A stretch of DNA of 64,000 nt from an uncultured Acidobacteriota bacterium (GTDB lineage: Bacteria; Acidobacteriota; Thermoanaerobaculia; UBA5066; Gp7-AA6), in NCBI GenBank assembly GCA_963832145.1, contig CAWHTA010000005.1:54562-118561 (forward strand), in the 5' to 3' direction. Each line of letters opens with the position of its first letter. Within the stretch, counting starts at the first letter, position 1. The notes below the pieces were generated by a model, which made no database searches, was not told the DNA's origin, and worked only from the letters and a program-made list of their open reading frames with translations. The translations under genes and the position numbers were made by a program. Shown piece after piece: positions 193-34,336 of this stretch.

Positions 193-1155
193 CCACGTCG
201 GCTGCAGCACGCATCGTCTTCGCAGGCACTTCTTCTTTCGCAGTTCCCATCCTTGAGACCGTGTTCAAAGCGGGTTACCCGATCGTCGGCGTGGTCACGC
301 AACCGGACAGACCGGCCGGCCGAGGGCAGCTCTTCCAGCCGCCTCCGGTAAAAAAGAAAGCTCTGGAACTCGGTTTCCCGTCCATCAGCCCGTGAGTTTG
401 AAGAACGACGACGCGCGGCGACTCTTCGCGACTCTGGCTCCCGAACTGCTCGTGGTCGTTGCGTACGGAAAAATTCTGCCGGCGTGGCTGCTGGAATTGC
501 CGCGCTACGGGGCGGTCAATCTTCATGGGTCTCTTCTGCCGCGCTATCGTGGCGCCGCTCCGATCCAATGGGCCATGGCCAACGGGGAATCCGAAACCGG
601 GGTCTGCACGATGAGACTGGATGAAGGCCTCGACACCGGGCCGGTGTACGCCTGCGAGAAAACTCCAATCGATCCTGAGGAGACCGTGCAGCAGTTGGCG
701 GAGCGGCTGGCGTCACTGGGCTGTGAGACTGATGGAGCGGACCTTAGACGGAATTGTCGCAGGAACTCTTGAGCCGGTTCCGCAGGATCACGAGCGCGCC
801 ACGCTTGCGCCGATTCTCAAAAGGGAAGATGGGAACATCGACTGGAGCCATCCGGCCCGAGCGATCCATAACCGGATACGCGCTTTCCATCCCTGGCCGG
901 GGTGCCGGACGGCCTTCCGTGATCTGACCTGCAGAGCTGATCCGGTCGCGGGTGAAGGGACCTGCTGCGGGCCATGGTCCGGGAACACTGGTCACTGGCA
1001 GCGGTGCGGAACGGTTCCTGGCGGTGGTCTGCGGTGACGGCCTCTTGCTCGAGCTTCTGGAAGTGCAGGTTCCGAACCGCAAGCCTCAGACAGGCATGGA
1101 TTTTGTGAATGGTTTCCGCATTACGACCGGCGAAAAACTTGGCCAGGTCCAATGA
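180..1155 (+). CDS. fmt: Methionyl-tRNA formyltransferase (frameshifted across 4 ORFs)
   Basis: Motifs VVTQPDRPAGRG, VVAYGKILP, NLHGSLLPRYRGAAPIQWA and IHNRIRAFHPWPG are spread over ORFs 180-395, 392-772, 621-1037 and 952-1155. Confidence 0.9.
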
Positions 1156-26281: not shown

Positions 26282-26427
26282 AACATCGGAAAAGGTTTCG
26301 CCCGCTCGCGACGGAGTTGGCGCCGGAGGTCCGAATCCCGCACACGCGGTTCCGGGCGGTCTTTCTTCGGCGGCCGCAATGCCGCGACGAGCTTTCGCCA
26401 GAGACGAATGATGATGCTTTCTCTCAC
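26278..26427 (-). CDS. Putative 49-aa basic small protein (MRESIIIRLWRKLVAALRPPKKDRPEPRVRDSDLRRQLRRERAKPFPMF)
   Basis: Translated by hand. The GTG start overlaps the TPR gene TGA (GTGA), and the ORF fills the gap exactly to the convergent amidase stop. Confidence 0.5.
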   Translation of the reverse strand: MRESIIIRLWRKLVAALRPPKKDRPEPRVRDSDLRRQLRRERAKPFPMF

Positions 26428-27877
26428 GCCTTCGGTTTGGAGGCGTCGCGAATGTCGGCCGGCAGGAGCTTCCGCTGCCGAATTGCTTCCCTCAGCAGGT
26501 TCACCGCAATCACCGCGTCCGCGAGCATCCCGTGCTCCTCAAGCATCGGCAGTGCGGCGCGGATCTCAGTTTCCGCTTCCCTCGGCCGACCCATGGCAAG
26601 GTACGTCTCCGCGATGAGCATGCGGTGGTACCCCTCCGGCCACGTCATTCCGAGCCGGGCGTGATCCTGACGGCTCATCTCGAGGAGGTTCAAAGCCTCG
26701 TCGAATCTCCCTTGCGAGCGATAAATGCAGGAAATCATGGAGTTCAGGTCGGCTAGGCCGACGTATTGCTTGCCCTCCCTAAGGAGACGTGCCGCTTCGC
26801 CGAACTCTTCAAGAGCTTGGTCATACTGCGCCAGGTTCTGATGAATGTCCCCAGATTGAAGCAGTACCCAACCGAAAAGTGCCGGCCGTATCCTCGATCG
26901 CCAGTGTCGTACGGGCTCCAGCACATCGAGTGCGTCATTAGGGAGGCCCGCAAGTTTCAGAGCACCCGCCCAGAGAATGCGACACTTGACACGGCCCTCC
27001 TCCATGCCCAGGTTGGTGAACGCGGCTGTCGAGTTGCGGGGCGACTTTCCCGACGATCTCCAGGCTACCGAGGGTATAGAAGATCGTTAGGCGCTGATAT
27101 AGGACTTTTGCCAGCCCCGGCTTGCGGATTTACGCCAGCTCCGAAATGATTCTCGGCAAGGTCAAGCCACCTCCCACTCTCGGTAAGCGTTTCCCACCCC
27201 ACGCAGCGCTGCTCCCAATAGCACTGCAGCTTCCCCGAGAAAGTAGAGACGAAGATCCGGTTCCATGTCTCCCGTTTCATGCTCGAGAGAGGCATAGACC
27301 GTCCGGAGTGCGTTCGAAACTCCTTTTGGATCTGTTTCGACGCTGTCGTGGAGATATATCAATGCTTGGAAAATGCTCTCGGCGCTACAATCGGAAGGAA
27401 ATCTTCGGAGCCTTCGAACCAACCAGCAGCCAGGTCATTGAAAATGGATGTCCTGAAGACGCTCTTGTACTCAGCCTCCCATCGATGAGCCTCTCCCGAT
27501 TGATCGAGGATTCTAGATGCGCGCCAAGCAACAAACGCGAACGAGCAAAGAAGCGATTCTTTCTCCTCAAGCGCGTCTTCCGGCCAACGCACGTTCTCCA
27601 GACGTGCGCGGATCTGCCCTGCTTCTTCGAGGGAACGCTGAGGGGTGGAGGCGCAATCGGTCATCAGAGCGCGGCAAACAGCGTGGAGTAGGTCCGTCGA
27701 TTCGTCCTGTTGCTCTAGATCCACCCTTGGCTGAATACCGGCCGCAACGTCCAGGCGAAACCGGATCCCTCGTTCCATCGAATCTCTTACGGAAAAACCC
27801 GTCGCGACCGAGACATCGGGAGCGATCTCAAGCCAAAAGGGAATCAGATCGAGCAGATGCGAGTCACTAACTCGAAT
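26424..27877 (-). CDS. TPR-like helical repeat protein 1 (frameshifted)
   Basis: Pieced together from ORFs 27359-27778, 27162-27422, 27065-27295 and 26424-27005. TPR-like helices include IYRSQGRFDEALNLL and IAETYLAMGRPREA. Start uncertain (ATT 27877 after AAGGAGG, or ATG 27778). Confidence 0.7.
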
Positions 27878-28269
27878 GGTCTCCTCCTTGAGGTTCCGTT
27901 TCCCCGTAACCTTCCGGACCCTCCCACTGGTCTTCCCGGACGGCCATCCGCGATTCGGACGGGGACCATTTGGTGACCAGTTTCGCCCGTCGGACCAGTT
28001 TGCGCTGGAAATTTACCGCCAAGTGGTCGACGACCTGTATTAGCCACGCTTTAGGGTTCTTTGAAGGATCGAGTTTCACAAGGGCGACAATAAACGCTTC
28101 CTGAACGACGTCTCGGGCGTCTTCCTTCTCGAAGCCGATGCCTCCACGTTGCTCGGCGGACGAGCGGGAGGAAGTACTGTCGATAGAACTCATCGAATAG
28201 CGCCGGATCGGACAAGAGGGGGTTGCCGGGGACATTCCCGGCCGCGATCTGCTTCCCCTTCCCTTTCAC
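27867..28269 (-). CDS. ECF sigma-70 region-2-only protein 1 (one frameshift near 28130)
   Basis: FDEFYRQYFLPLVRRA..EDARDVVQEAFIVAL..NPKAWLIQVVDHLAVNFQRK matches ECF sigma2. No region-4 HTH follows. Confidence 0.72.
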
Positions 28270-28339
28270 AATTCTCGCTTCGCGCCAAGGTCTCAATATG
28301 TATTGTCGCGAGGATGCGGAACAGGGGATTCGGGTAGAC

Positions 28340-28360
28340 GAGCCGCCCTGACGGCGGTTC
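28340..28360 (-). terminator. Hairpin directly after the TPR protein 2 stop
   Basis: GAACCGCC-gtcag-GGCGGCTC on the minus strand; no U-tract. Confidence 0.35.
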
Positions 28361-29481
28361 CTAACCGGCTTGGAGGTGGGCTTTTAGCTCTTGCAGGGCT
28401 TTGGGATCGGCCTTCCGCCGGCTGACCGACTCGCGAAGCAGGGCAGCCGCCGCGAAAGCTTCGGGAACCATCTGAATCTCATCGATCACCGGAAGGGCGG
28501 CCAGAATCTCCCACTCCGCTTCGCGCTCACGCCTCATCTCGAGCAGTGTTTCTGCAATTACGAGATGGGTGTAAGCGACCTGTCCTCTCAATTCCAGAGC
28601 CCGATAGTCGCCCTGAGCTGCTCGGAAAGCCAGCTCGGCTTCGCCAAGCGAGCCCATGGCCTTATGAACACCGCCCACGTAGAGCTTTAGATCAGCCTTG
28701 GCCAGGCACAATTCTTGACCTTCCAAAGGAGCCAAGGCCTTCTGAAAGGCCGCCATGGCCAATCCGAACTGGCCTACCAACTGCCTGAGGTCGCCGAGTT
28801 CGCTCAAGATTCGCGCGCGCAGCGAAGCATCGTTTCTTAGGGCCGGAGCGTCATGGAGATCGCCGAGGGATTCGATCGCCCTGTGAGTGCTCGCCCAGTC
28901 TGCTTGAGCGTCATGGCGAGAAGGAGAGTGCATTTCGCCGCGTCGACTTCCATCCGGAGTTTTCGGAAGCTCGATTGGAGTGAGGGCGCGAGCTCCAGAT
29001 ACGTGCTGATACCGACCCATTTCGAATCGAAGGGCCAACGCGCATACGCAACGTTCGCGAGGCCCAGGCGCAGGGTTCATGGTGTGCCGAAAACCAGCCT
29101 CTGCCCGATCGAGCCAGAGCAAGGCTTCTTCTCGTTTGCCAAGCTACACGGGATGCTCCAGACGCCAGAAGAGCAAACTCGCCGAGGGCATAGTCGCGCT
29201 CGTCGAACAGTCCGAGGTAAAGCCCGGCCTCGCGATCCATTCATAGACTTCGCGCGTTCCCGCTCTAGGACTATGCCGGGGTCGGCATCTCGTCCTCAAA
29301 ACCGCGCAGATCGACAAGAGAACATCTGGATTCGAGAAGTGCTGCTCCCGATGCGCATTCGGTTCTTTCCTCTGTCGGAATGGAAAGATAGTCACGCGCC
29401 TCGACTTCGGCCTCCTGAGGCGAAAGCCAGGCCTTCTCCGGCCGGGACCGGGAAGTGGAGGATCTTGGCGTTAAGACTCAT
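28361..29481 (-). CDS. TPR-like helical repeat protein 2 (frameshifted), paralog of protein 1
   Basis: Starts MSLNAKILHFP, overlapping the upstream gene. Pieces are ORFs 29144-29395, 28911-29240 and 28361-29122. C-terminus IAETLLEMRREREAEWEILAALP..LLRESVSRRK aligns with protein 1. Confidence 0.72.
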
Positions 29482-29887
29482 TCGGTGTCCGAAAATTCAG
29501 GAGTTCAAGGCTTCGTGAGAAGTCGCGAGCAACGTCGAGCGGTTCACGCTCCAGGAGTCGCTGGAGTTTTTCGTCAGAGGTTCGCGCACCGGAGCCGAGT
29601 ACGTATCGTTGGTACTCCCTTGCAAACTGACAGCACGCGACAAGAAGAAAGGGGCGGGCGTCGCGTGCTGAGGAATTGCCGGGCCGGTAGCAGAAACGGA
29701 GGAACCAAACGTACAGGTCTTTCTCGAGTTCGAGCGCTTCCGATTCGCTGAGCTGGTAGTGCGTGACGAGCGCGATGTGAATGAGACCGAGAGTTTCCTG
29801 GAAGACGGCGCGAACGTCTTTCTCGAAGGTCTCCGCGCTCGAGCGCGAGCCCATCAGATCGTCCACTGCATCCATCGCCATCTCCAT
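29471..29887 (-). CDS. Degenerate sigma-70 region-2-like protein 2
   Basis: Intact 138-aa ORF. YQLSESEALELEKDLYVWF..ARPFLLVACCQFAREYQR parallels the sigma2 DAEDLVQE..WL..IA.N...D..R pattern. Confidence 0.55.
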   Translation of the reverse strand: MEMAMDAVDDLMGSRSSAETFEKDVRAVFQETLGLIHIALVTHYQLSESEALELEKDLYVWFLRFCYRPGNSSARDARPFLLVACCQFAREYQRYVLGSGARTSDEKLQRLLEREPLDVARDFSRSLELLNFRTPNES

Positions 29888-30007
29888 ATGTTCTTGGGAG
29901 TCGGGCGGAGCTTAAATGGTGGGAAGCAGAAATGCAAATCCCCTTCCCCAAAGATTCACAATGGAAGGAAGAGGCTTAGATTGTGTGAGTTGAGGGCCTA
30001 CGAAGCC

Positions 30008-30040
30008 CTAGTTAGGAACGCTGCCCCTAAGACTGGGCAT
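30008..30040 (-). CDS. Micro-ORF, 10 aa MPSLRGSVPN
   Basis: GAAAGGAGG-atttc-ATG, hairpin AGGGCTTCGTAGGCCCT at the stop, and candidate promoter TTGCTG-N16-GACAAT at 30102-30075. Confidence 0.6.
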   Translation of the reverse strand: MPSLRGSVPN

Positions 30041-30398
30041 GAAATCCTCCTTTCGTTCGCAACGCCCCGGACCCATTGTCCGGCGCTAAAGAAAAACAGC
30101 AAGCTTGTGAAAGCGACTGAATCGACGACGCTGGAAAACGGCTGTGTTTACCGGCCTTTTCTCAATGCGAACGACGAAGCCGAAGCTGTCACGAGCTCGG
30201 GGCCCCACCAAAAAACGAGGGGGTTTCCACCAGGTGAAAAACGAATCGGTGACATTCGACCATAGATCCGATCAGCCATGACAAGAAATCTTTCAGTCCA
30301 TTGGTCGTACGACTAAGGTCGTAGAGAGAGGATAACACCTCTCGGGACTCTCGGAGCGAGGAAAGAGGGGTGAATATCGAGAAGGCGGGAGGTGGGGT

Positions 30399-31864
30399 CT
30401 ACCCGTTGGCCACGAGAGCCCGGAGGAGCCGATCCTGGTACTCCTGACCCTGCCAGTCGCTGATGCCCCGGCCGTTGAGCAGGATCGCGAAAACGTAAGT
30501 CCTCCCGGAGCGGCCTTTCGCGTAGCCGGCAAGGGTCGAGACCCTCTCCAGACTGCCCGTTTTGGCCAGGACCTGCCCACGGGTCGTGGGATCCTTCAGG
30601 CGGTGCCGGAGGGTCCCGGCGCTATCCCCCGCTACCGCGAGGGTGTTCCTCCAGAGCTCTCCGTGGGGATGGCGATCCATCGCCCTCAGGAACCGGACCA
30701 GGTCCGCGGCGGCCGCCCGGTTCCCTGACGACAGGCCGGAGCCGTCCCGCAGCTGATACCGGTCGGCGTCCAGCCCCAGCGCCACGAGGAACTCCTTCAC
30801 GAGGACGACGGAGCCGGCCCACGTCCCCTGCCCGGTCTTCGCCGCCGAAAGCGTCTTGAAGATCTGCTCGGCGTAGAACCCCTGGCTCCTCTTGTTGCAG
30901 ACCTCCAGGGTCGGGATCAGGTCGGATTCCGTGGTGGCGACCTGCGTCCAGCCCGTGTCCGGTTTCGTTCCGCTTTCGATCACGCGGCCGGTCACCGCGA
31001 TCCCGGCGTTCTCGAGCCGCTTCCTCAGCGCCTTTCCAAAGTACTCGGGCGGGCGGTCGATCGTGATCGGGGTCGACCACCAGGCCCGCCGCAGCGGAAC
31101 CGTGCCCGACACGGTGACGGCGTTCGAGCCCGCGGCCCGCGAGACGGCGACCCGCACGCGACCGCGGCGCCCGACGGTTCGTGCGAGCGGCACGGGGCGC
31201 AGGATGTCGACGGGGGGCTCGATCGAAACCCCGGCTGGCCTCCCGGCTCGGGACCCGGGGCGGACCGAAACCAGGACGACGTTGTCGTTGTACGAAAGGG
31301 CGGAGATCGGCGCCTGGTACCAGCGCGACTCCTGTCCCGCCGGCCAGTCCGGATGGCGGGCCATCGAGTCGAAGAAGCTCGCGTTCAGGAGGAGGTCTCC
31401 CGTCACCCGCGTCACGCCCGCCTGTCGAAGCCCTTCCGCCCAGCGGTCGAACACGGCGTTGATGTCGTCTCCGTAGAACCGCCCCGAGATGTTGGGATCG
31501 CCCCCTCCGACGACAAGGAGAGACCCCGTGAGGTTGCCCTGCTCGATGGGTCCATGCCTCCAGAAGGTCGTGTGGAACTTGAAGTCCGGCCCGAGATAAT
31601 GAATCGCGGCCGCAGTGGTAATGAGCTTCGTGATCGAGGCGATGGTCTGCGGAGCGTCGGGGTTCCGATCGTAGATCACCTCCCCCGTCTGCTGATCCGC
31701 GATCTGGACGGAAACGCCGCCGCGGGAGCCCCGGCACGCGCAGAGAAGCGCGATCGAGCGCCGCGCGAAGCAGAGCGACTTCCTGGGGCGCAGCCGGGAC
31801 CGGCAAGCGAGAAGACGAGAAGGGCCGCTCCGACGCTCCGGAGCGAGGCGAGAGGTCGTGACAC
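30399..31864 (-). CDS. dacB: D-Ala-D-Ala carboxypeptidase/endopeptidase PBP4 (5' frameshift)
   Basis: ASITK (SxxK), GGGDP, DGSGLS and KTGSL. Confidence 0.92.
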
Positions 31865-31922
31865 TGGAGAATTATAGTCGCTTGTGGGCTGACTCTCGCC
31901 GACAATCGATCCGGAGGCCTCT

Positions 31923-34336
31923 CTGAGATTCGACGCCGATTCGAAGACGTTCGAGGTTTCGGTGCGCGAGCTCGCCGAGGAAGAAGGATTCCGGCGCGTC
32001 GGGTTCGATCGCGGTGACGGATGGCGGCGCCTCGGACTCGGGACCGAAGTTCACTCGCGCGTTCTCGCTCTGCGCCTCGAGACTCATGCCGCCTACCGCT
32101 GCGAAGGTGCACCTCCAGGCGCGCGTGCCGGTCGAGGACTGGACCGCGGTGCTGACCGGCCGTCTCGACGGCTGCGTGGAACGCGCGAAAGACTCGTGGC
32201 TGATCGAGGAGTTCAAGTCCGCCTATCTCTCGTCCGAAGGCTTTCGCTCTTCGGGATACGGGGTCGAGCGCGATCGACGGCAGCTTCTCGGTTACTGCTA
32301 TCTCTGGCGCCGACTCGGACACCCGCACGTCACCGGGGCGCTCGTCTACGTCGACATCGCGACCGGCGAAGAGCTCTCGCTCGCGGTCCCCTACGACGAC
32401 GAACAGTACGATCGGGACGTCGAGGCGCGCCTACACGCCTTTCTCCGCGCCTGGAAGGCCCGCGCCAAAGCGCGGGCGCGGAAAGCCGCTGCGGCGGATC
32501 GGCTCCCCTTTCCACACGCCGCCGCCCGACCGATCCAGGAGAAGCTGATGGAGGCGGTCGGACTGCGCGATCGCGCAGGGAGAAGTCCTGCTCGCAGAGG
32601 CTCCGACCGGCTCCGGAAAGACGGCCGCCGCCCTCCACCCGGCCATGGCGGCCGGGCTCCGCACGGGGAGGCAGGTGGTCTTCCTCACGTCCAAGACGCT
32701 GCAGCAGAAGATGGCGGTCTCCGCTCTGACGGCCATGAACGAGCGTGCGTTCCACACCCTCCAGGTCCGCGCGAAAGAGAAGATGTGCGCGAACGACCGG
32801 ATCCTCTGCCACGAGGACTTCTGCCGCTTCGCCAGGAACTATCCCGAGAAGATGGCGCGCTCCAACATCCTCGGACGCCTTCGCGACTCGTACCCGCATC
32901 AGGATCCGGACGTCGTCTTCGAGGAAGCGCGGCGCGAGGAGGTCTGTCCGTTCGAAGTGCAGCTCGAGCTCGCGCAGCGCGCCGACGCAATCGTGGCGGA
33001 CTACAACTACGTCTTCGAGCCGGGCGTCGCCATGCGCCACCTGATCGGCGAGCAGCTGAAGGACGCCATCCTGATCGTGGACGAGGCGCACAACCTGCCC
33101 GATCGTGCCCGGCAGATCTTCTCTCCCGAGCTTCTGGAGGAGGACCTCGCTTTCGCTCGAAAACGGCCTGGCGCTTCAGCCCGGCGACCTCTTCGGGGAC
33201 CTCGTTGCGAGCGTTCGACGACCTCCTCGCAATCCTCGCGGCGACGGCGGAGGAGCTCCCCGAAGGAGACGCGATCGCGGAGGTCACCCCTCCCGCGGAC
33301 GCGATCCGCGCGCTGGCGCGCCGAGTGGGAGCCCCGGCTGCTGCGCTATCTCGAGTGGAAGCGGGACACGCGGGCCGGCCCTTCCCGAGGATCCCATCCT
33401 CGACCTGCACTTCACCCTTCTTCGACTGGCCGCCGTTCTGAACCTCTACGGGCCGGACTTCGCCTGTGTCGTCGAGAGGCGGGCGTCCGGACTTCGGCTC
33501 GCGCTCGTGTGCCTCGACCCGGCGCGCGCGGTGGGCCCCGTGTTCCGTTCCGCGTTCTCCGCCGTCCTCATGTCCGCGACGCTCGCCCCGCATTCCGCGA
33601 TCCAGCGTCTCCTCGGTCTGCCCGACACGCGAACCGGATCGATCTCGCTGCCGCCCCCGTTCCCGCGGGAGAACCGAAAGGTACTGATCGTGCCGAAGGT
33701 CAGGACCACGTTCGCGGCCCGCGAAAAGAACTACGCTCCGCATCGCGAAGCTTCTCGCCGAGATGTCCGACGCGCACACGGGGAATGACCTCGTGCTGTT
33801 TCCCTCCTATCGATTCCTCGCGTCGGTTGCCGAGAGGATGCCGCCGACCCGCGCGAAACTGCTCGTTCAGCGGGCCGACCTCACCGCTTTCGAACGGCAG
33901 CGCGTGCTCGCCGCGCTCACTTCGCCGCCACCCGAGGGGATCCTGCTGTTCGCGGTGTCGGGTGGGATGTACGCCGAGGGCGTGGACTATCCCGGAGACG
34001 TGCTCTCCGGGGTCTTCGTCGTCTCGCCGGCGCTTCCCCAGGTGTCCTTCGAGCGAGAGCTTCTCCGGCGGTACTTCGAGGAGCGTGAGGAGGCCGGCTT
34101 CGACTACGCCTACCTGCAGCCGGGAATGACGCGGGTCGTTCAGGCGGCGGGCCGGCTGATTCGAAGCGAGACGGACCGCGGCGTCATCGCCCTTCTCTGC
34201 CGGCGGTTCCTCGAAGAACCCTACGCGAGCCGGCTGCCCCGGGACTGGTACGCGGAGAGCCCGAATCGAGCTCGTCTCCCAGCGGCCTGCCGACGAGATC
34301 CGCGAGTTCTTCGACGGATACGGAAGGCCGTCGTGA
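31923..34336 (+). CDS. DinG/XPD-family Fe-S helicase with N-terminal PD-(D/E)XK nuclease-like domain (frameshifted)
   Basis: GRLDG..IEEFKS, then EAPTGSGKT, KMC..C..C, VCPFE, IVDEAHNL, MSATL, FPSY, EGVDYPG and QAAGRLIRSETDRG. GGAGG followed by a CTG start. Confidence 0.85.

Follow-up and report, generated by a model that had tools for sequence, protein, structure and literature searches.

Can a reading frame of ten codons, standing by itself between two much longer genes, be a gene in its own right, and if so, on what would its peptide act? The question is raised by a 64,000-nucleotide (nt) stretch of DNA from an uncultured member of the Acidobacteriota, referred to here as the window (G000:C5:54562-118561, from a genome of 3.47 Mb in 12 contigs). 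On its minus strand a gap of 510 nt separates a gene for a PBP4-type D-Ala-D-Ala carboxypeptidase from an open reading frame (ORF) for a protein of 138 amino acids (138 aa), the first member of a cassette that appears to combine proteins resembling only region 2 of a sigma factor (sigma2-like) with tetratricopeptide repeat (TPR) proteins. Within this gap an earlier note had picked out a micro-ORF, MPSLRGSVPN, behind a strong Shine-Dalgarno (SD) sequence, and the strings that it quoted are all found at their places on the minus strand: TTGCTG at 30102-30097, a spacer of 16 nt, GACAAT at 30080-30075, GAAAGGAGG, the ORF and AGGGCTTCGTAGGCCCT. Annotation overlooks genes of ten codons, and to our knowledge very few genes of this size are known to be functional, the 7-codon mccA being the textbook example. 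Here we find that the micro-ORF is very probably a genuine gene under selection for its peptide. A single genome is merely suggestive on this point; it is the comparison of related sequences that settles the question.

The ribosome-binding site is indeed exceptional, as had been claimed. The pattern AGGAGG-N4-8-ATG occurs once on both strands of the 64-kb window, and that single site is the SD of the micro-ORF. Genome-wide there are 214 such sites, 142 of them in front of ORFs of at least 100 codons and 19 in front of ORFs of at most 15 codons, so that from this one genome a chance ORF is still possible. Nonetheless, the idea of a chance ORF behind a fortuitous SD, or of an assembly artefact of a longer gene, is almost certainly wrong, since frame, length, start and stop are conserved in 42 to 48 of 49 orthologous loci. 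The indel check that had been suggested points the same way: in the two RNA-library contigs that cover the ORF, none is listed in 30008-30040.

These 49 loci represent 8 genera of a single Thermoanaerobaculia family and consist of the 30 best orthologous loci together with 19 of 20 further loci that were fetched (one was too short and was dropped). The earlier note had staked its proposal on comparable micro-ORFs at homologous loci, and they are there. An intact ORF with the conserved core is found at 48 of the 49 loci and is exactly ten codons long at 42; the other seven loci comprise four forms of 12 codons, two of 17 and a single frameshifted one. Among the 30 best loci, 28 carry ten codons ending in [V/I]-P-x-stop behind a GAAAGGnGG-like SD, 105-175 nt upstream of the 138-aa gene. 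A 17-codon form with a tandem duplication of the ITGGVPS core (MNGITGGVPSITGGVPS) is found in G015 (L040), and a 12-codon form, MACLNGPPPGRS, which reads GPPPGRS, in G096 (L025). The 19 further loci include 14 with exactly ten codons and three with 12 (…VPGRS once and …VPSTV twice); at one of the remaining two (L103 of G068) the stop is lost and the ORF runs for 17 codons, terminating in a spacer that is rich in stops in all three frames, and the other has a 1-nt insertion. Besides L025, the 12-codon forms are those at L100 (G109), L095 (G091) and L097 (G089). Within the genus itself, 8 of the 14 other genomes yielded the intergenic region in a DNA search of 40 relatives, and the micro-ORF is present in all six of the relatives whose sequence covers it in the alignment. 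The start column and the ten-codon length are common to 28 of 28 and 29 of 30 sequences in two alignments, where the next-best column reaches at most 8.

The pattern of substitution indicates what is being conserved. Among 29 distinct ten-codon sequences the start codon is TTG in 14, ATG in 11 and GTG in 4, and the stop codon is TAA in 15, TAG in 12 and TGA in 2. Codon 9 is CCN, for proline, in all 29: its first two positions are invariant and its third position uses all four bases (entropy 1.93 bits). Similarly, codon 8 is always GTN or ATH, giving valine in 24 sequences and isoleucine in 5, with a third-position entropy of 1.80 bits. Synonymous codon differences number 844 in the frame of the micro-ORF as opposed to 387 and 120 in the other two frames. 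In the peptide core that emerges, position 4 is hydrophobic, positions 6 and 7 hold small residues, position 8 is valine or isoleucine and position 9 is an invariant proline, usually one residue before the stop. Because the residues at codons 8 and 9 are fixed while their third positions are free, selection acts on the peptide and not on the RNA.

To follow the element through the family we used a covariance model (R1) of the micro-ORF, its SD and the hairpin directly upstream of them (T2 in Table 1). The model has matches in 75 of 105 family genomes, and in 39 of the 47 of high quality, almost always one per genome; these counts include genome G099. For 70 of the 79 matches the 138-aa protein also has a match at a distance of 450 nt or less, and in position and copy number the micro-ORF is fixed beside the cassette. 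Five of the nine others stand within about 350 nt of a contig start and two are partial, and the list of protein matches against which they were compared is incomplete. One genome, G020, holds two micro-ORF units about 2.4 kb apart (G020:C1:823677-826694), the first of which (MNSLGTSIPT) precedes a broken sigma2-like copy, so that here the entire unit is tandemly duplicated. A pattern search of G000 for ORFs of 8-14 codons ending in [VI]P-x behind an SD gave other distinct matches that looked unrelated. The only motif-like match, on contig C2, is enclosed in a long open frame away from any cassette genes and was taken as chance.

Table 1. Features of the intergenic region and its flanking genes, in order of the minus strand; positions are those of the window.
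Feature	Position	Strand	Remarks
Carboxypeptidase gene (PBP4-type, dacB)	30399-31679	-	Pfam Peptidase_S13, E 8.4e-87
P1, promoter-like motif	30254-30284	-	TTGTCA 30284-30279, 19 nt, TCGAAT 30259-30254; from 30-locus alignment
Conserved 5' leader, about 205 nt	30041-30247	-	Includes terminator-like hairpin T1 (about 30156-30139) and a T run
Hairpin T2	30064-30086	-	Directly upstream of the SD; short T run after it
Shine-Dalgarno sequence, GAAAGGAGG	30046-30054	-	GAAAGGnGG-like in nearly all orthologous loci
Micro-ORF, MPSLRGSVPN	30008-30040	-	ATG 30040-30038, nine further codons, TAG 30010-30008
Spacer	29975-30007	-	A-rich and stop-rich, TAAnTAnCTGA-like in relatives; includes the hairpin of the earlier note
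Hairpin T3, terminator-like	29940-29974	-	Followed by T-rich ATTTGCATTTCTGCTT
P2, predicted sigma70-type promoter of the 138-aa gene	29909-29937	-	TTGCAT 29937-29932, 17 nt, TAAGCT 29914-29909; consensus-based
138-aa gene, first of the half-sigma/TPR cassette	29471-29887	-	Sigma-region-2-like by the fold of its paralog

The micro-ORF also has longer relatives. A second, paralogous cassette of three genes is located on contig C1 of the same genome at 71607-73291 (L064 608-2292, plus strand), where a 46-aa ORF behind AAAAGGAG is followed, after about 90 nt that include a hairpin, by a gene for a 116-aa sigma2-like protein and one for a 368-aa TPR protein, the start of which is overlapped by the stop of the 116-aa gene. 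The 116-aa protein and the 138-aa protein of the window are 39% identical over residues 19-125. ORFs of 44-49 aa ending in …G-x-I-P-x occur at 20 of 21 paralog loci from several genera, and their alignment reveals an N-terminal PVRVPERxPEP, a C-terminal RF-x-IK-h-x-G-x-IP-x and three invariant residues, F36, I38 and P45. The shared end motif is illustrated by the last eight residues of the two forms in G000, …KVRGMIPN for the long form and …SLRGSVPN for the micro-ORF. When 20 sigma2-like copies from five genomes were inspected, 14 had an upstream ORF ending in [VILM]-P-x, of about 10 or of 36-50 residues; one of these 14 is ambiguous, and one of the six misses is a 12-codon variant. The paralogous ORF has the P1 motif and the SD in common with the micro-ORF, but its leader is short; just before its sigma2-like gene stands a '-10'-like TGTA(A/C)CCT. 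The long form has 267 database relatives, all unnamed or 'hypothetical', and the 46-aa protein has no Pfam or NCBIfam domain and no usable ESM Atlas match. With end motif and position in common, the micro-ORF is a shortened relative of the 44-49-aa proteins and the smallest member of a family of small proteins that goes with these cassettes.

How might so small a gene be transcribed? The promoter proposed by the earlier note, TTGCTG-N16-GACAAT, fares poorly, as its hexamers match the consensus at three of six and four of six positions and it is absent from the listing of a promoter scan. Its '-10', GACAAT, in fact lies in the loop of the covarying hairpin T2, and relatives read GGCGGT, GGCGAT or GGCATT there. 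Another promoter-like motif, P1, stands further upstream. Conserved in the 30-locus alignment are an A-tract with CTTGACACC, then TGTGrTnnAAT and then GATTC; across relatives a TTGACACC-like box is separated by 19-21 nt, an atypical spacing, from TGTGrTnnAAT. In the window the '-10' TCGAAT is preceded by TATGG, where relatives have TGTG, and GATTC lies just downstream at 30247-30243. A motif of the form T(T/C)GA(C/T)ACCC … TGTGrTnnAAT is common to the micro-ORF and to the paralogous 46-aa ORF (L064 about 520-560, plus strand), and P1 could be a site at which the cassette's own proteins act. We also observed, about 25 nt upstream of the P1 box, a perfect palindrome, ACGACCTTAGTCGT (30309-30322, minus strand), which looks operator-like; it is kept, as ACGACTTTAGTCGT and similar sequences, in all seven aligned relatives of the genus and was not seen in other genera.

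The end of the putative unit is marked by a different hairpin from the one first noticed. The 3' hairpin of the earlier note, AGGGCTTCGTAGGCCCT at 30009-29993, does fold in the window, but it has no counterpart in relatives; the conserved hairpin downstream of the ORF is T3. A hairpin of 10-14 base pairs is present here in nearly all of 28 loci even though its sequence differs between genera, with a U-rich tract on its 3' side in genera g1 and g10. It begins 22-55 nt after the stop codon (median 33), beyond a spacer that in most aligned relatives has stops in all three frames, and its 3' base adjoins the conserved TTG of P2 with a median gap of 0.5 nt. The P2 consensus TTGnnT-N16-18-TAnnCT is conserved in 30 loci, with TTGACT-N17-TATCAT in G091 and G089, and a CTCC…GGAG stem surrounds the start of the 138-aa gene. 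The stretch from P1 to T3 thus looks like one small transcription unit and P2 like a separate promoter for the cassette. Because T3 follows the ORF and abuts P2, the arrangement looks like that of a transcription unit of its own and not like that of a classical leader peptide.

Between P1 and the SD lies a long leader, which may itself function as a regulatory RNA. Alignments show it to be conserved across genera, and a consensus fold for one genus has 31 pairs, four with compensatory changes, although some reference sequences are shifted. Hairpin T2 has seven consensus pairs, five of them with compensatory changes; 93.8% of its cells are paired as compared with 81.7% in shuffled alignments (none of 500 reach the observed value) and at most 56.5% in slid controls. 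In addition, RNA-library contigs from two metatranscriptome studies cover, of a 1.3-kb stretch, only 29997-30306, that is, leader and ORF and neither flanking gene. These contigs provide a weak hint of expression, as their strand, ends and level cannot be read and DNA may be present; the best sequencing runs carry 0.27 of the sampled words, contigs were used throughout, and the X1/X5 DNA contigs do not span the ORF. On such grounds a structured RNA, akin to a small RNA or riboswitch and reaching from P1 to T2 or T3, might be considered the main product, with the micro-ORF secondary, for example as a site of protective ribosome loading. The conserved, covarying leader and the RNA-library contigs would suit such a product, as would an A/U-rich segment with a 3' terminator, which resembles the ends of small RNAs. 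We nevertheless judge it quite improbable, since the fixed amino acids and free third bases of codons 8 and 9 mark the peptide as selected, since the paralogous ORF has the same promoter and SD with only a short leader, and since no Rfam family was found at threshold: a scan of 28500-31500 with E up to 10 gave only two chance-level matches, both far below the gathering cutoffs (20 versus 110 bits and 16.7 versus 45 bits).

If the peptide matters, it could do so while still on the ribosome. In this alternative the micro-ORF acts in cis: the nascent …G-x-V-P-x would slow or arrest the ribosome near the stop codon, thereby setting termination at T3 and the occlusion or supplementing of P2, or else the stability of the leader. 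Conservation is concentrated at the very end of the peptide, where the proline is invariant, which is reminiscent of arrest peptides such as TnaC and SecM; one variant reads PPP, a known ribosome-stalling motif. The terminator-like T3 and the three-frame stops of the spacer fit as well. A precedent is offered by mccA of Escherichia coli, where a ribosome bound to the 7-codon ORF brings about termination at the terminator that follows and makes the RNA more stable (PMC4231749). Yet several observations make us consider cis action unlikely, if worth serious attention. In minimum-energy folds of the 28 loci the ORF bases show no consistent pairing with an arm of T3, which forms alone; T3 starts outside the footprint of a terminating ribosome; the gene to be regulated has its own conserved promoter; the peptide motif is kept at paralog loci despite a different downstream RNA; and extensions of two and seven codons are tolerated. 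Regulatory codon runs are absent from all 29 peptides. The suggestion of the earlier note that a leader peptide controls read-through is weakened by this same lack of pairing and of codon runs, by the variable distance to the hairpin and by the intervening promoter.

The micro-ORF shares with leader and arrest peptides (trpL, TnaC, SecM) a short ORF, a strong SD, conserved residues next to the stop including proline, and a downstream hairpin. Unlike trpL-type leaders it lacks codon runs and antiterminator pairing, its hairpin stands at a variable distance and a promoter separates it from the gene; unlike TnaC and SecM, its next conserved structure, 22-55 nt beyond the stop, would not be overlapped by a stalled ribosome. 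With mccA, the gene for the microcin C precursor, the unit shares a length of no more than ten codons, a ribosome-binding site of its own, an intrinsic terminator before the next gene and hence a short, plentiful transcript with the peptide made in excess of the proteins downstream, termination and RNA abundance being putative in our case. Here, though, the micro-ORF stands among genes for a PBP4-type peptidase and for sigma2-like and TPR proteins, with no MccB-like adenylyltransferase or modifying enzyme nearby; there is no sequence likeness, and the gene that follows the micro-ORF has its own promoter. The unit resembles mccA in architecture and may resemble Rap-Phr or NprR-NprX in logic, with defining features of each missing.

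What, then, are the partners with which a free peptide could interact? The 138-aa protein has no match in Pfam or NCBIfam, but 97 of the 104 other family genomes hold orthologs or paralogs of it, as against none of 70 genomes of two sister families; the family tallies include the unpublished genomes G099, G024, G090 and G098. The intact gene order is seen in G007: dacB, leader with micro-ORF, 138-aa gene, 373-aa TPR gene, a 131-aa gene with a Sigma70_r2 domain only (E 2.1e-7) and a 540-aa TPR gene. No micro-ORF was seen on reading the gap before the second pair of this cassette (the sigma region-2 gene and the 540-aa TPR gene) in G007. Both the micro-ORF and the 44-49-aa ORFs stand two genes upstream of a TPR gene, and the sigma2-like genes have weak SD signals or none. 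We saw no transporter, peptidase or modifying enzyme in the cassette, and the literature, supplementary files aside, yielded no description of a system made of micro-ORF, half-sigma and TPR proteins.

Protein models were built from the paralog's cassette, not the window's, and they suggest what these partners may be. The model of the paralog TPR protein (predicted local distance difference test, pLDDT, 88.8) has its best Foldseek matches to peptide complexes of LGN/Pins (E 7e-7 to 1e-5, template modelling (TM) score 0.54-0.66), which score better than Rap proteins, Rap-Phr complexes included (E 2e-5 to 1.5e-4, TM score 0.51-0.57). A sequence profile of the TPR protein has matches to Pins/LGN at 1e-16, NprR at 8e-7, RapH at 7e-5 and RapJ at 1.7e-4. 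For the 116-aa protein (pLDDT 88.0) the best VIA-align match is the sigma2 fragment of SigR (Z 8.3, root-mean-square deviation 2.2 Å over 76 of 78 residues), and many of the top 25 are extracytoplasmic function (ECF) sigma factors; a Z of 8.3 is middling for a helical protein. Foldseek gave no match to this model at E of 0.001 or below, and its sequence profile was without a PDB match.

In the window itself the cassette downstream of the 138-aa gene (26424-29470, minus strand) is fragmented in comparison with G007. The 373-aa TPR gene is split, starting near 29479 and continuing at 28361-29122; the region-2 sigma gene is broken (about 28296-27870); and the 540-aa TPR gene is in pieces at 27359-27778, 27065-27295 and 26424-27005. 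One base at 29448, in the first TPR gene, is missing from two metagenome DNA contigs of two runs that are otherwise 95-99% identical to the window. Assembly indels and strain-specific decay are both possible explanations.

Taken with the transcription unit, these partners lead us to propose, tentatively and at somewhat less than an even chance, that the peptide is a trans-acting partner of the cassette. P1, the leader with T2, the SD, the ten codons, the stop-rich spacer and T3 would make a separate small transcript, while the 138-aa gene would start from its own sigma70-type promoter, P2, abutting T3. Such an architecture would suit a tiny peptide made in excess of the downstream proteins and regulated separately from them. 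Unsecreted, the peptide would act in trans on the cassette, most likely by sitting in the groove of the LGN/Rap/NprR-like TPR protein and less likely on the sigma2-like protein, and its occupancy would switch the cassette's transcriptional output. The selection on its residues, the very strong SD as against the weak signals of the sigma2-like genes, the separate unit and a TPR protein of a peptide-binding type all speak for this proposal. Indeed, the intracellular-ligand reading of the earlier note has gained plausibility, because the peptide is selected, its end motif recurs before paralogous cassettes and the TPR protein resembles LGN, NprR and Rap.

Several points weigh against a trans-acting peptide. 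The step in trans is suggested by gene neighbourhood and fold resemblance, P1, P2 and termination at T3 are all predicted from consensus, and in some genera T3 is without a good U tract. The peptide carries two extra residues in four lineages (…VPGRS, …PPPGRS, …VPSTV) and a duplicated core in another, which means that it does not need a free carboxyl group one residue beyond the proline and weakens the strict picture of a C-terminal tag in a TPR pocket. The PPP of G096, being a stalling motif, fits action in cis. A long conserved leader precedes the ten codons, and the RNA could be the main product. Finally, because the TPR genes are fragmented in the window's own genome, the peptide may there have lost its partner, or the breaks may be assembly indels.

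The likeness of the TPR protein to Rap and NprR raises the alternative that the peptide is exported, as a signal or as the precursor of a modified peptide in the manner of pheromones or of ribosomally synthesised and post-translationally modified peptides, and is sensed back by the TPR protein as in Rap-Phr and NprR-NprX. The tandem duplication of the core in one genome would suit such a precursor. We find this very improbable: ten residues are too few to include a signal or leader segment, the alignment (read with no signal-peptide predictor) shows the 44-49-aa form to be hydrophilic, rich in proline and devoid of any hydrophobic stretch, and the transporter, peptidase or modifying enzyme that export would call for was not seen in the cassette. 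A short peptide gene beside a TPR protein with Rap and NprR matches in fold and profile does recall the RRNPP pairs of Firmicutes, phages and plasmids. In contrast to these pairs, the micro-ORF peptide has neither a secretion signal nor a pro-part and is probably not exported, its TPR protein is paired with a sigma-region-2-like protein and not with a response regulator or helix-turn-helix domain, the host belongs to the Acidobacteriota, the best TPR fold match is LGN/Pins and not Rap, and peptide binding is hypothetical here.

Among the structural and profile matches of the TPR partner, the best is LGN/Pins, in complex with peptides of NuMA, Inscuteable and Frmpd (PDB 3sf4, 3ro2, 4wnd). The inner groove of LGN accommodates long unstructured peptides, and the Pro-rich 46-aa protein, or its last ten residues, might be bound likewise. 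However, LGN is eukaryotic and functionally unrelated, and the resemblance is one of repeat architecture only.

A more specific form of the trans-acting proposal is that of a peptide-gated split sigma factor. Here the protein with sigma region 2 only and the TPR protein would together form a two-part initiation factor, switched by the unsecreted ten-residue peptide, or by its relative of 46 residues, lying in the groove of the TPR protein, and P1, with the odd 19-21-nt spacer that is common to both paralogous peptide genes, would be its autoregulated target. We offer this as a long shot. It finds a parallel in SigO-RsoA of Bacillus subtilis, where a small protein resembling sigma region 2 alone works with a second protein. 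In our case, unlike SigO-RsoA, the sigma2-like protein has a TPR solenoid as its partner, a peptide gene stands in front of the two, and the system is known from genes alone. If true, it would mean intracellular peptide control of promoter recognition by one of the shortest functional bacterial genes known.

The broader interest of the locus depends on which reading holds. The micro-ORF offers an unusually clean comparative proof of selection on a peptide, together with an apparent promoter, leader and terminator of its own and a longer relative, and it may supply the missing piece of an unstudied cassette of half-sigma and LGN/Rap-like TPR proteins that is near-universal in one family of soil Acidobacteriota. 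If the peptide is a ligand, transcription control by peptide and receptor would extend beyond Firmicutes and would do so without secretion; if its action is in cis, the micro-ORF would encode a new short peptide that arrests the ribosome or controls termination.

Two further features of the surroundings were observed. The PBP4-like frame, counted from its first start codon, has 426 aa in the window as compared with 485 aa in G007, the N-terminal signal region being absent. Its upstream end is overlapped by an ORF of 568 aa in a different frame (30622-32328), and either a frameshift or an assembly indel is possible. The region 26400-30400 is a block of lower G+C content (55-60%, as against 64-73% around it) that coincides with the cassette and the leader.

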